DNA of 64,000 nucleotides from an uncultured Candidatus Saccharibacteria bacterium (GTDB lineage: Bacteria; Patescibacteriota; Minisyncoccia; Phycocordibacterales; GCA-2401445): NCBI GenBank assembly GCA_964436015.1, contig CAYTAR010000002.1:9521-73520 (forward strand), given 5' to 3'. Numbering within the stretch: the stretch's first letter is position 1; every line of letters begins with the position of its first letter. Below, one piece after another: positions 42,141 to 42,890 of this stretch. The position numbers and the translations under genes were made by a program. The notes beneath the pieces are model-generated. The model had not been told where the DNA came from and did no database searches. It saw only the letters and a program-made list of their open reading frames with translations.

Positions 42141-42513
42141 CCCAAAATAGAAACCCCAATAAAGGGGTTTTTATTTTGGGGCGTCTAAGAAAGCAAACTG
42201 CTTTGCTTCCGTTCGGGAATCGAACGGCGGAGTATGTTGCGAGTTTCGAGCAACTACGAGCCGGTGCCGAGACCATATTTTCTGACGAGAAAATATGAGT
42301 CAAAGGAGATTCCCGATACACCCACCCTGTCACGTTTGTGTATGGGGTGTTGGTGTTTGGAGCGTCTATCGGGAATCGAAAGACGGAGGCGCGAAGCCGA
42401 CATGTACTCATGTCGTAGCCGAGTCGGGGTCGCGAGTACTTAGGGTTTTAGAGCGTACTCGCGAATAAAAGACTTAGTAACTTGTGACCGATTCCATTTC
42501 TATATTTCTTCGC
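42141..42513 (+). repeat. tRNA-His-associated repeat unit H1 (373-bp unit including an 18-bp-stem hairpin)
   Basis: CCCCAAAATAGAAACCCCaataaaGGGGTTTTTATTTTGGGG; TTCGGGAATCGAACggcgg (inverted His T-arm); cgaagccGACATGtactCATGTC...gagtcggggtcgcgagtacttagg; GACTTAGTAACTTGTGACC + GATTCC. Confidence 0.8.
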
Positions 42514-42890
42514 CCCAAAATAGAAACCCCAATAAAGGGGTTTTTATTTTGGGGCGTCTAAGAAAGCAAACTGCTTTGCTTCCGTTCGGGAATCGAACGG
42601 CGGAGTATGTTGCGAGTTTCGAGCAACTACGAGCCGGTGCCGAGACCATATTTTCTGACGAGAAAATATGAGTCAAAGGAGATTCCCGATACACCCACCC
42701 TGTCACGTTTGTGTATGGGGTGTTGGTGTTTGGAGCGTCTATCGGGAATCGAAAGACGGAGGCGCGAAGCCGACATGTACTCATGTCGTAGCCGAGTCGG
42801 GGTCGCGAGTACTTAGGATTTTAGAGCGTAGTCGCGAATAAAATACTTAGTAATTTGTGACCGATTCCGTGTTTTTCGCCCAAATCGATC
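42514..42890 (+). repeat. tandem second copy (H2) of the 373-bp His unit, diverging only at its 3' end
   Basis: Near-identical to 42141-42513, which is why two identical spurious minus-strand ORFs appear 373 nt apart in the ORF track. Confidence 0.8.

Follow-up and report, generated by a model that had tools for sequence, protein, structure and literature searches.

What is the 373-bp unit that stands twice, head to tail, directly behind the tRNA-His gene of an uncultured Candidatus Saccharibacteria bacterium, and how did it come to be there in two nearly identical copies? The locus belongs to a stretch of 64,000 nucleotides of contig CAYTAR010000002.1, which was analysed as a whole and is referred to below as the window. 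The original prediction described the unit at this one locus. An anonymous, locus-specific repeat is not supported, as the two modules of the unit belong to a family that is found behind every tRNA of the window and at more than 115 loci in Paceibacteria. We conclude that the repeat is probably a two-period stretch of a tRNA-anchored array, composed of non-coding modules that copy their target and reshaped by recombination between X repeats, where X denotes a sense copy of the 3′ end of the host gene.

As read from the sequence, G-1 of the tRNA is nucleotide 42069, the 3′ strand of the acceptor stem is 42134-42140, the discriminator C73 is 42141, and the CCA end is encoded (42142-42144). Tandem Repeats Finder reports a single array at 42137-42868 (period 373, 2.0 copies, 98% matches, no indels, score 1436), and the repeat search finds 300 nt at 100% identity (42137-42436 = 42510-42809), which bears out, for the assembled sequence, the tandem duplication that had been predicted; 300 identical bases are not attainable by chance. 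Direct comparison of the copies gives 13 mismatches, all within the last 65 nt of the unit. The 359 homologous nucleotides contain four substitutions (42445, 42458, 42471 and 42481), and past 42495 the copies diverge at the junction. All four substitutions are located in the last 51 of the 359 nt, an arrangement that has a probability of ~4e-4 under a uniform spread and that fits gene conversion or crossover between older copies rather than one fresh duplication. The 3′ ends of the two copies are distinct and anchored in unique flanks. Because the repeat begins inside the 3′ end of tRNA-His (TCGCC/CC), each unit opens with a copy of the tRNA 3′ tip, and a third TCGCCC (42876-42881) follows copy 2. 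The two minus-strand open reading frames of the ORF list (42088-42411 and 42500-42784), which had been called spurious, do exist and are very probably not genes, since they overlap the tRNA and the folded, covarying RNA modules described below; protein coding by them was rejected on these grounds.

The order of elements in the unit is the tRNA 3′ tip, hairpin H′, a hairpin with an ACTGCT loop, module A, another hairpin, and module B (Table 1). H′ is the hairpin with an 18-bp stem and AATAAA loop that had been noticed before; it was said to follow the discriminator base, and its actual start is the last base of the acceptor stem. Its outer pairing spans 42134-42187, with the acceptor 3′ strand TAGTCGCC pairing with GGCGTCTA (repeat search and RNA fold). 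The loop motif AACTGCTT of the small hairpin precedes modules in many genomes (L023, L026, L046, L059, L060, L074, L076, L093, L113). The a′ segment of module A (CGGGAATCGAAC) is the reverse complement of the tRNA-His T-loop/T-stem sequence GTTCGATTCCCG, and the X copy after this module (GATTCCCGATA) equals tRNA-His positions 57-67 and pairs with a′ in the fold. The module A core gives a weak covariance-model match (17 bits) and has homologous pieces in L054, L031 and L018. The X′ segment of module B (GGAGCGTCTATCGGGAATCGAA) is complementary, apart from two mismatches, to tRNA-His positions 54-73. Judged by its orthology with a hairpin of the species L116 (see below), the trailer hairpin appears to be the ancestral one, displaced behind two units. 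A transcript of the tRNA-His array has a predicted fold with z = -10 in which X′ is paired with the T-arm of the tRNA, and no promoter-like site was found inside this array.

Table 1. Positions of the tRNA-His array, its parts, and the arrays behind other tRNAs of the window
Feature	Position	Strand	Basis or remark
tRNA-His(GTG)	42070-42144	+	ARAGORN; Rfam tRNA 61.5 bits
Array unit copy 1, 373 bp	42137-42509	+	Tandem Repeats Finder, repeat search
Array unit copy 2, 373 bp	42510-42882	+	homology stops ~42868
Hairpin H′, 18-bp stem, loop AATAAA	42140-42181 (42140-42157 / 42164-42181)	+	repeat search, RNA fold
Hairpin H′, second copy	42513-42554	+	repeat search
Small hairpin, loop motif AACTGCTT	42191-42208; second copy 42564-42581	+	sequence
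Module A a′, CGGGAATCGAAC	42214-42225; second copy 42587-42598	+	sequence, blastn self-matches, fold
Module A core, diverged type-1 relative	42226-42307; second copy 42599-42680	+	
X copy after module A, GATTCCCGATA	42308-42318; second copy 42681-42691	+	sequence, repeat search
Module B X′, GGAGCGTCTATCGGGAATCGAA	42359-42380; second copy 42732-42753	+	repeat search, fold
Module B type-1 core	42382-42489	+	CM R1 68.9 bits, E = 8e-13
Module B type-1 core, copy 2	42755-42862	+	CM R1 67.5 bits
Degenerate X copy at unit junction, GATTCC-atttctatatttct-TCGCCCC	42490-42516	+	sequence; junction type also in L116
Degenerate X equivalent after copy 2, GATTCC-gtgttttt-CGCCC	42863-42881	+	sequence
tRNA-His trailer hairpin and T-run, AAATCGAT CAATCGAATAC gcgaaa GTATTTCGATTG TTTTT	42882-42924	+	orthology with L116
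tRNA-Arg(TCT) array	34854-35445	+	type-1 cores 35123-35217, 35323-35431
tRNA-Leu(GAG) array	38567-38995	+	type-1 modules 38634-38740, 38840-38949
tRNA-Val(TAC) array	36565-37004	-	type-1 module 36819-36937 and long module
tRNA-Ser(TGA) array	30355-30657	-	two modules: 30490-30586, 30368-30455
tRNA-Arg(GCG) module	24101-24239	-	type-2 core and 3′ end of type-1 core
tRNA-Lys(TTT) type-2 module	19347-19443	-	flanked by GGGTAGGAATCGAA and GATTCCTAG

In the reading direction of the tRNA, a module consists of X′, a conserved folded core, and X. X′ is an antisense copy (in tRNAs, of the T-arm/acceptor 3′ strand) and X a sense copy of the host gene 3′ end, which in the modules of the window is a direct tRNA copy from position 57 to the discriminator. 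Successive modules are separated by a hairpin whose stem extends back into the preceding X. The commonest core, type 1, is ~105 nt long and comprises a short helix P2, a conserved internal loop, a variable hairpin P3, the dinucleotide GG, and a long hairpin P4 that ends in CTTAGTAACTTGTGACC. RNAalifold finds compensatory changes in 11 of 25 pairs among 19 seed sequences. When 122 sequences are considered, 94.4% of the core cells are paired compared to 76.1 ± 0.5 in shuffles (none of 500 shuffles reaches the observed value), double-sided changes number 516 compared to 143 ± 10, and 21 of the 25 pairs show them; slid registers of the alignment are just 28-44% paired. The alignment was fitted to the covariance model (CM) and the loci were gathered by an exact 17-mer, and base conservation in P4 is consequently inflated. 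At two positions of P4 most pairs are G.U, and this identifies the strand of the core as that of the tRNA, and CM scores on the opposite strand are much lower. The type-1 core is a covariation-supported structured RNA encoded on the tRNA strand.

This RNA was compared with known families. A scan of the whole window against Rfam 15 at gathering thresholds yields just six tRNAs and one SAM riboswitch, and in E-value scans of 41900-43100 and 34700-39100 the modules match only chance miRNA-type hairpins and none of the self-cleaving ribozymes, group I or II introns, HEARO or other transposon RNAs, tmRNA or riboswitches. The segment CUGACGAG of module A was considered as a hammerhead candidate and rejected, being a plain hairpin loop with no hammerhead match. 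Group I introns of Patescibacteria tRNAs are located in the anticodon loop at position 35/36 (PMC13011429); they are unrelated to the present case, where the tRNAs are intact, and such an intron was likewise dismissed.

All seven genuine tRNAs of the window have one to three modules directly downstream on their own strand, and a search with model R1 with filters off shows the type-1 cores in the 64-kb window to be confined to tRNA arrays. The three modules behind tRNA-Arg(TCT) have three different hairpins and cores, and CGATTCTTACCGGGGGCAC occurs there twice in exact copies. The tRNA-Leu(GAG) array includes a ~45-bp hairpin that incorporates the 3′ third of the tRNA; in its module 1, a 19-nt X′ (GCGCGGGAGAGGACTTGAA) can pair with the downstream X (CAAGTCCT[TCTC]CTCTCCCGCGCA, with a 4-nt insertion) in an imperfect minihelix-like stem. 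The long module behind tRNA-Val(TAC) has an extra conserved domain (ending 36586-36641), and the tRNA-Arg(GCG) module is flanked by GTAGGAATCGAA and GATTCCTACCG / GATTCTACTGAGAAC.

The flanks of the modules follow the host gene. The mean longest exact match between the 3′ flank and the 3′ end of its own tRNA is 8.7 nt, compared to 4.8 ± 0.12 for other tRNAs, and the corresponding values for the reverse complement of the 5′ flank are 8.9 and 5.2 ± 0.14. The junction is precise: of 28 long-form modules, drawn from more than 10 tRNA identities, 25 have an X that begins with tRNA position 57. The host gene 3′ end is matched in antisense by X′ over positions 54-72; the last base of X′ is the complement of position 54 in 25 cases and lies opposite positions 70-71 in 20. 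Its complementarity to the upstream 3′ end (median 9 nt, mode 11 nt) is the most constant feature of the flanks. Less favourable to the proposal, the two flanks of a module pair with each other in only modest excess (5.3 nt compared to 4.4 nt in the control), and in ~60% of modules the X copy is just a very short one. Target duplications vary from about 6 to 50 nt, with no fixed length. A 12-bp stack of acceptor and T stem with a discriminator is seen in some modules (Leu module 1, L011, L046, L056, L079) and is absent or decayed in His module B, the short-form modules, and the ftsZ and gatB copies.

Outside the window, the type-1 core was found at more than 115 loci, almost all of them in Paceibacteria, behind tRNAs of more than 15 identities and also behind tmRNA, ftsZ and gatB. 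The modules at the latter three genes follow the same flank logic as those at tRNAs, as do several unrelated cores, and the module at gatB is accompanied by a 44-nt exact duplication of the gene 3′ end. Of 154 nhmmer matches, 102 follow a tRNA in the same orientation, and one follows a tRNA in the opposite orientation. Cores appear shuffled among hosts, in that only 14 of 86 nearest neighbours in another genome come from a tRNA of the same identity (7.7 expected) and pairs from the same genome are not more alike; the idea that cores are orthologous by simple vertical descent with their tRNA type was rejected. Tandem re-duplications of a comparable kind are found in L031, L046, L048, L111 and L112, direct repeats continue into lineage-specific trailers in L133, L132, L046 and L031, and modules are missing altogether from many lineages with the same tRNA-His 3′ end. 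Full-text literature searches did not find a description of this element, and the family is apparently undescribed.

The history of the tRNA-His array can be followed in a syntenic species (L116), assembled independently, which has an orthologous array with a period of ~371 bp and a junction of the same odd type (GATTCC-aaattctatttc-CGCCC). The amplification had been predicted to be recent. This applies to the first 300 nt, which were recently made identical; the arrangement itself is not simply recent, given the orthologous array. L116 shares the P3 hairpin with the window and shows a compensatory change in P2. The orthologous trailer hairpin directly follows tRNA-His in L116 and stands behind two units in the window, the two species being distant. 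Two other distant species, represented by L051 and L082, differ by ~900 bp: L051 has a Ham1-like gene between X copies, and in L082 the same module directly adjoins the tRNA. The search for a strain close enough to show an empty site or a different copy number at tRNA-His found none; the flanking DUF1189 protein has just one relative in the protein database (41% identical), an exact search with the window's own protein returned no contig, and the H′ hairpin of the window is present in 0 of 58 metagenomic tRNA-His loci.

No recombinase, transposase or reverse transcriptase was found in or next to any array examined, and the 373-bp unit contains no credible ORF. Neighbouring genes encode a kinase-like protein, a 645-aa protein without Pfam match, DUF1189 and ZIP. 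Some modules are separated from their tRNA by long gaps with ORFs, including the Ham1-like one of L051, and no integrase or reverse transcriptase was recognised there, the L051 ORF having been scanned with Pfam and the others inspected by eye. A 17-mer scan of viral contigs gave one match, a chance one inside an ORF, and no match was obtained when the unit was compared with phages and plasmids by blastn; an origin from a phage or plasmid was rejected on this basis.

If the array is built as we propose, it seems fairly safe to assume that it expands, contracts and homogenises by recombination between direct X (plus hairpin) repeats, by way of unequal crossover, gene conversion, or a one-period circle that would be excised and re-enter. 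With the same degree of safety, recombination between X repeats would have produced the 300 identical bases; recombination between repeats was one of the routes offered by the original prediction and is the best explanation of this identity. The alternative offered there, insertion of a mobile unit, gains support from the location of the units between the tRNA 3′ end and the trailer hairpin, which abuts the tRNA in L116. More tentatively, the modules might be non-autonomous insertion units that copy their target, entering at a fixed place (after C56 and before the T-loop purine 57, or after position 72 at the acceptor end) and perhaps duplicating the host gene 3′ end upon entry. The core might then be read through from the tRNA promoter, and X′ could pair with either the real upstream 3′ end or the downstream X copy. 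Against such insertion, no recombinase, transposase or reverse transcriptase is found near the arrays examined, and phage, plasmid and viral collections lack the unit.

Two other accounts were weighed. It is highly improbable that a meaningless tRNA-His spacer was recently duplicated by slippage or unequal crossover, or that the tandem is an assembly artefact, and as a complete account this is already contradicted. Such a duplication would leave two head-to-tail copies with 300 identical bases, and a repeat exceeding the short-read length can be mis-assembled; however, the modules of the unit recur behind six other tRNAs of the window and at the loci elsewhere, the independently assembled species has an orthologous periodic array, similar re-duplications exist at five other loci, and neither duplication nor artefact agrees with distinct 3′ ends anchored in unique flanks. 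We also consider it unlikely that the arrays are scars of tyrosine-integrase integration, i.e., tandemly accreted small derivatives, similar to cis-mobilisable elements, that lack an integrase and are mobilised in trans, with X as att and the core as a conserved arm beside attP. The absence of an integrase in or near any array and of the module from viral contigs, phages and plasmids argues against it, as does the sharing of one core by more than 15 tRNA identities, for which many integrase specificities would be required. Moreover, RNA-type covariation and strand-specific G.U pairs are not expected of protein-binding arm DNA, and att sites have no counterpart to the antisense X′. Nevertheless, each insert is flanked by direct tRNA repeats that begin in the T-loop and continue past the 3′ end, and there are two discrete registers, T-loop and extreme 3′ end, which correspond to known integrase sublocations (Williams 2002, Nucleic Acids Res). 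The targets include tmRNA and the 3′ ends of conserved protein genes, the arrangements in L051 and L082 speak for this account, and there is ample documentation of tRNA gene fragments that integration has left behind (PMC9897764).

The remaining accounts concern the RNA. It is possible, with odds clearly below even, that the modules are host RNA elements acting in cis on the 3′ end of the upstream transcript and that the arrays are side products of recombination. The 3′ end of the upstream tRNA, tmRNA or mRNA would be the pairing partner of X′, and the core would recruit or constitute an activity in processing, termination or stabilisation; long-form modules, where the closing helix copies the acceptor/T-stem stack and discriminator, could be cut out by RNase P and RNase Z in the manner of a tRNA. 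Consistent with this are the strict location just 3′ of the gene on its strand, the lack of a separate promoter, the occupation of all seven window tRNAs, the constancy of X′ complementarity to the upstream 3′ end, the fact that distant species with streamlined genomes conserve the core through compensatory changes, and the imperfect minihelix-like stem that X′ and X of Leu module 1 could form. On the other hand, function alone does not explain the direct copy of the gene end behind the core, which at gatB comprises as many as 44 coding nucleotides, its start at exactly position 57, the flank logic common to several unrelated cores, or three different modules at one tRNA; many lineages with the same tRNA-His 3′ end do without a module, and the flanks at ftsZ and gatB are not tRNA-like. 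A bolder proposal, which we regard as doubtful, is that the modules are class-wide, protein-less, self-propagating RNA elements, whose small folded and possibly catalytic RNA would be read through from tRNA promoters, would use X′ to find the universally conserved T-loop (GTTC/R) or other gene 3′ ends and would be copied in behind them with duplication of the target. Long retention with compensatory changes in very small genomes, as between the window and L116, suggests that the RNA is useful to the cell and not merely selfish.

If the array is what we propose, Paceibacteria, a major and little understood bacterial lineage within the Candidate Phyla Radiation, spend a noticeable share of their very small genomes on a single class of RNA modules. 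The 56/57 T-loop junction and the antisense and sense copies of the 3′ end match no described element or RNA family, and they point to an unknown route of tRNA/tmRNA 3′-end processing or control or to an unknown mechanism of site-specific insertion. The modules also account for features that annotation pipelines will encounter in these genomes, namely tRNA-fragment “pseudogenes”, spurious ORFs and tandem repeats, and a covariance model is ready for annotating the modules. Were the self-propagating interpretation true, the modules would represent a new form of homing, in which non-coding DNA reaches the 3′ ends of tRNA, tmRNA and essential genes without an element-encoded enzyme.

Among known systems, the partial duplications of tRNA and tmRNA genes at att sites of integrative elements are similar in that a direct copy from the T-loop or extreme 3′ end through the discriminator flanks the units, and in that tmRNA and conserved protein-gene 3′ ends are used. 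Several units stacked at one tRNA with the gene left intact also resemble tandem accretion of cis-mobilisable elements. In contrast to integrative elements, the modules have no integrase, are merely 150-400 bp long, have one conserved covarying RNA core for more than 15 tRNA identities, add an antisense copy of the target, and have no link to phages or plasmids. MITEs, REP/BIME, REPIN and Rickettsia palindromic elements share with the modules the small size, the non-coding, multi-copy and hairpin-rich character, the location at gene 3′ ends, and the absence of a gene of their own. However, MITEs and REPs have identical terminal inverted repeats in every copy, recognised by a transposase, whereas the inverted flanks of the modules are locus-specific and equal the local gene 3′ end, the target duplication has no fixed length, and the location is limited to a few kinds of genes.

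The internal guide of group I introns, the EBS/IBS pairing of group II introns and the IS110 bridge RNA provide another parallel, namely a folded RNA with a variable segment complementary to the insertion site, and X′ spans a junction (54-56 plus 57 onwards) as an intron guide spans two exons. The modules differ from these RNAs in having no Rfam intron or ribozyme match, recombinase or reverse transcriptase and in carrying a sense copy as well; unlike in introns, the core is far smaller and the host gene is uninterrupted, with its full 3′ end upstream. Finally, tRNA-snoRNA dicistrons, the MALAT1 mascRNA and engineered tRNA scaffolds are comparable in that the module is directly behind a tRNA without a promoter of its own and some long-form closing helices reproduce the acceptor and T stems and the discriminator of the neighbouring tRNA, although in many modules the closing helix is just 6 bp long or the acceptor part has decayed, and the ftsZ and gatB copies are not tRNA-like.

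Tandem Repeats Finder reports a single array, at 42137-42868 behind tRNA-His (score 1436, 98% matches, 2.0 copies, period 373, no indels), and a repeat search finds no difference between the initial 300 nt of copy 1 and copy 2. This confirms, with small corrections, the near-exact 373-bp duplication of the original prediction, and its statement that the copies differ only in their 3' part holds as well: our own comparison gives four substitutions, at 42445, 42458, 42471 and 42481, followed by divergence at the junction, beyond 42495. The unit is indeed present behind the tRNA, but the repeat begins within the tRNA itself (TCGCC/CC); a third TCGCCC stands at 42876-42881, 3' of copy 2. 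Similarly, the 18-bp hairpin is real (42140-42157 with 42164-42181) but does not start after the discriminator base, as had been proposed; the pairing reaches 42134-42187. The two minus-strand ORFs that had been called spurious are both present and overlap the tRNA and the folded RNA. The CCA encoded after this tRNA in the window stems from the beginning of the inserted unit (CCAAAATAG), and the ancestral trailer, C/CAAATCG without CCA, is seen in the window (42880-42884) and in the contig of a syntenic species, L116 (3718-3722).

Each unit holds two modules, A and B, where a module consists of an antisense copy of the host gene 3' end (X'), a conserved folded RNA core and a sense copy (X). 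All parts of copy 1 recur in copy 2, shifted by +373. Folded as RNA, the segment 42120-42520 yields -182.9 kcal/mol (z = -10); in the predicted fold, X' of module B pairs with the T-arm and acceptor 3' strand of the tRNA, and the X copy of module A pairs with its antisense segment a'. A promoter scan found no promoter-like site within the tRNA-His array and placed one at 42942-42970, preceding the DUF1189 gene. The small hairpin with loop AACTGCTT also lies just 5' of X' and core at 35290-35307 and in L023, L026, L046, L059, L060, L074, L076, L093 and L113 (L-numbers denote loci in other genomes); it may serve to bind a protein or to direct processing.

Coordinates of the features (window positions unless a locus is named)
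Feature	Position	Details
tRNA-His(GTG)	42070-42144	G-1 42069; acceptor 3' strand 42134-42140; C73 42141; encoded CCA 42142-42144
Unit start, copy 1		tRNA 3' tip
Hairpin H'	42140-42181	outer stem: TAGTCGCC paired with GGCGTCTA
Small hairpin	42191-42208	loop AACTGCTT
Module A, a'	42214-42225	CGGGAATCGAAC
Module A, diverged core	42226-42307	
Module A, X copy	42308-42318	GATTCCCGATA
Hairpin between modules A and B	42319-42355	
Module B, X'	42359-42380	GGAGCGTCTATCGGGAATCGAA
Module B, type-1 core	42382-42489	68.9 bits
Module B, decayed X		GATTCC-atttctatatttct-TCGCCCC
CGCCC, then second hairpin with T-run	42882-42924	3' of copy 2
Diverged copies (blastn)	38624-38746, 38830-38955, 35149-35222, 35363-35431, 36948-36869, 36613-36578, 24132-24111, 30595-30519	
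Type-2 core	19347-19443(-), 24141-24239(-)	behind Lys, Arg-GCG
Type-3 core	34900-35002(+)	behind Arg-TCT
Extended domain	36641-36760(-)	behind Val; contains ...GGTGTACAG..CTGTAAG...
L086	tmRNA 7166-7553	module 7674-7767
ftsZ modules	L081 1257-1368, 1431-1542; L005 4303-4418	

A sensitive blastn search of the window with the unit as query detects diverged copies of the final 125 nt of the unit, all of them directly downstream of another tRNA and on the strand of that tRNA. Reading of the sequence reveals one plan behind 7/7 genuine tRNAs of the window (Lys, Arg-GCG, Ser, Arg-TCT, Val, Leu and His). The tRNA 3' end is followed by a hairpin and by X', the reverse complement of the T-loop, the T-stem 3' strand and often the acceptor 3' strand of its own tRNA; then come the conserved core, X, which repeats the tRNA sequence in direct orientation from T-loop through discriminator, and often a further hairpin and a further module. 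Examples are GTAAGAATCGAAC ... CGATTCTTACCGGGGGCAC for Arg-TCT and GCGCGGGAGAGGACTTGAA ... AAGTCCT..CTCTCCCGCGCAC for Leu. The tRNA 3' strand is reproduced by X' in exact antisense, and the 5' strand is not what X' copies; the T-stem 5' strand of tRNA-Leu reads GGAGG where X' has AGAGG. Three different modules are stacked behind tRNA-Arg(TCT). At least three more conserved cores in the window are flanked according to the same X'/X logic, and homologues of them exist at further Paceibacteria loci; the core of His module A has relatives in other genomes with the same flank logic. An ARAGORN tRNA-Pyl call (anticodon CTA, 57968-58043(-)) is probably a false positive, having neither Rfam support nor a module and lying opposite a long ORF, 57680-59365(+).

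The commonest core, type 1, was analyzed from 19 seed sequences aligned with MAFFT (alignment A1), with a consensus fold from RNAalifold and a covariance model, R1, built from the same alignment. Helix P2 has three pairs, with GC, AU, GU, CG and UA replacing one another; between P2 and P3, a variable hairpin followed by GG, lies the conserved internal loop (C-R-S-A-R facing YGAG); and P4 is long (GGTC-GCGAGT-ACT ... AGT-A-ACTTGTGACC) with a covarying tip. With filters off, R1 matches the window solely behind tRNAs and on the tRNA strand, and it has 122 matches over 100 sources. In the resulting 122-sequence alignment, which is fitted to R1, standard pairs fill 94.4% of cells compared to 76.1 +/- 0.5 after shuffling (0/500 shuffles reach 94.4%). 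Both-sided changes occupy 516 cells (143 +/- 10 in shuffles), 21 of the 25 pairs show compensatory changes, and sliding the partner column by 1-3 leaves only 28-44% pairing. The loci were gathered by an exact 17-mer of the P4 3' strand, so invariance there is partly ascertainment. Two P4 positions are G.U in most sequences where the opposite strand would give A.C, which fixes the strand; judged by its pattern of substitution, the tRNA strand encodes the core as a structured RNA.

The flanks are specific to the host gene. For 86 tRNA-linked matches, with tRNAs of other identity as control, the mean longest exact match of the 3' flank to its own tRNA 3' end is 8.7 nt (control 4.78 +/- 0.12; 33 matches of at least 9 nt, maximum 24), and that of the reverse-complemented 5' flank is 8.9 nt (median 9; control 5.2 +/- 0.14), while the two flanks of one module match each other over 5.3 nt (control 4.4 +/- 0.1). 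In the long form X starts at tRNA position 57 in 25 of 28 modules (>10 tRNA identities, many genomes), the final C of ...GACC occupies the place of C56, and in 25 cases X' stops at the complement of T54. Glu, Arg and Lys typically have the short form, with an X of discriminator and trailer only (..GACC/ACAAAG behind ..GGGC/ACAAAG) and an X' ending at the complement of positions 70-71 (20 cases); the short form in L113 covaries, with ATAAG behind ..GGGC/ATAAG. We regard the RNA-type structure, the strict sense-strand placement behind gene 3' ends and the exact junction as established.

The window comes from the chromosome of a Patescibacteria organism and carries genes for PBP1, PolA, a type II/IV secretion ATPase and a ZIP transporter; its SAM (S-box) riboswitch (28250-28349(-), 64 bits) precedes a gene for a PLP enzyme of Cys/Met metabolism (26991-28175(-)). 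The 17-mer CTTAGTAACTTGTGACC occurs at more than 115 loci in species-representative genomes; the matches listed come almost exclusively from MAGs of Paceibacteria/Parcubacteria (Nomura-, Yonath-, Vogel-, Taylor-, Zambryski- and Lloydbacteria), and ~75 loci have it 120-400 nt behind a same-strand tRNA. An HMM made from the 122-sequence alignment gave 154 matches: 102 downstream of a same-strand tRNA, 1 on the opposite strand, 10 upstream, and 41 lacking a nearby tRNA (cut loci, tmRNA, protein genes). In this biased sample, the type-1 core stands behind 91 of the 163 tRNAs having sufficient downstream sequence.

Other hosts include tmRNA genes (Rfam; L045, L070, L086, L089), where the T-arm and acceptor of the tmRNA reappear in the 3' flanks of the modules (GATGCCCCCATCTC...). 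Modules lie behind ftsZ in L081, with FtsZ_C confirmed by Pfam; in L005/L034, L087 and L105 the same host is inferred from a match in the sequence coding for the C-terminus, and in L106 and L109 it is judged on module flanks alone. Here X' (GCAAAAATGCGAACCGC) is the reverse complement of the final coding bases, giving a long hairpin across the stop codon, and the gene end recurs in decayed form 3' of the core. In L093 the module (7789-7887) follows gatB (Pfam), whose 3' end is duplicated exactly over 44 nt after the core, with an X' of 6 nt; gatB reads GGTTC/GGCAAACC at the junction, which is T-loop-like. A Ham1-like gene with a TATAAT-like box sits between two tRNA-Glu X copies within the L051 array (393-1540), and on the reverse strand of L082 the same short-form module directly abuts the tRNA, which indicates that arrays can hold gene cassettes. 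L073 has a module upstream of tRNA-Leu, preceded by a duplicated tRNA 5' fragment (1590-1911), and in L082 (reverse strand 1-220) the tRNA-Glu promoter and decayed tRNA 5' part are duplicated in tandem.

The DUF1189 protein downstream of the tRNA-His array has one relative only, 41% identical, and its contig, L116, is syntenic with the window (kinase-like gene, large protein, tRNA-His, further on DUF1189 and ZIP). Four genes (DUF6364, YafQ-like toxin, HTH protein, N_methyl prepilin-type protein; 4291-5945) are extra in L116 between array and DUF1189 gene. The hairpin CCAAATCGACCAGCCGGATACGCGAATGCGTTCCGGCTG immediately 3' of its tRNA-His clearly corresponds to the second window hairpin. It is followed by X' TGTGACTATCGGGAATCGAA, then by a type-1 core (86 bits) with the P3 hairpin of His module B and a compensatory P2 change (GAC..GTC to GGC..GCC); an extended module then leads through the junction GATTCC-aaattctatttc-CGCCC to the same hairpin and X' again, with a period of ~371 bp. 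The comparison leads to two conclusions: at tRNA-His a periodic array with this odd junction is old, and the window's two units, which carry another first hairpin (H'), stand between the tRNA and the ancestral trailer. The tRNA-His 3' 23-mer occurs at 58 metagenome loci, in most lineages without a module; L119, L121, L126, L132, L133 and L135 have diverged cores, X' again and often perfect X copies, and some repeats extend into the lineage-specific trailer (32 nt in L133). H' is absent from all 58 loci, so no near strain of the window is among them.

Each unit ends in a copy of its start (X, often with the hairpin), and consequently unequal crossover, gene conversion, and loop-out of a one-period circle with re-entry would all be expected. 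All four substitutions fall within the last 51 of 359 homologous nt (p ~4e-4 for a uniform spread), and by comparison to the related Arg-TCT module 2 each copy has two derived changes in that part, which argues for two older copies whose first 300 nt were homogenised recently. The recency of the predicted amplification would then apply to the homogenisation rather than to the copies themselves. Similar tandem re-duplications in L031, L046, L048, L111 and L112 make an assembly artefact unlikely. We also count as established that the antisense and sense flanks are host-specific, that the family spans the class and comprises several core types, and that its arrays are dynamic.

Our preferred reading is that the modules would be target-copying and non-autonomous, with a putative RNA read through from the tRNA. 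An origin by insertion is suggested by the duplicated target, the fixed junction, the stacking of three different modules at one tRNA, and cores that appear shuffled among tRNA types, the nearest-neighbour core sharing tRNA identity in 14 of 86 cases vs 7.7 expected. It is also suggested by the target set, since tRNA, tmRNA and 3' ends of conserved genes are the classic targets of integrative elements. Williams in 2002 reportedly placed integration sublocations at the T-loop and the 3' end, which we take to be the two registers of the module.

The next-ranked explanation, a cis-acting 3'-end RNA of the host, draws on modules kept with compensatory change in very small genomes, the occupation of every genuine window tRNA and an X' that is constantly complementary to the 3' end upstream. 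Integrase scars rank third: the arrays examined contain no integrase, transposase or reverse transcriptase in or near them, we found no link of the module to phages, plasmids or viral contigs, the core covaries as RNA, and att sites have no counterpart of the antisense copy X', all of which speak against a classical element.

Rfam 15 has no match for the module, and no published description was found in the literature searched, the coverage of which is incomplete. The closest phenomena on record include the tRNA gene fragments that integrating elements leave behind (PMC9897764). The others are MITE/REP-type repeats, the guide segments of introns and bridge RNAs, and RNAs freed by tRNA-type processing. 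All of these have one or two features in common with the module and fail a defining one, and we therefore rate the modules as a family outside the known kinds, with a proposed mechanism.
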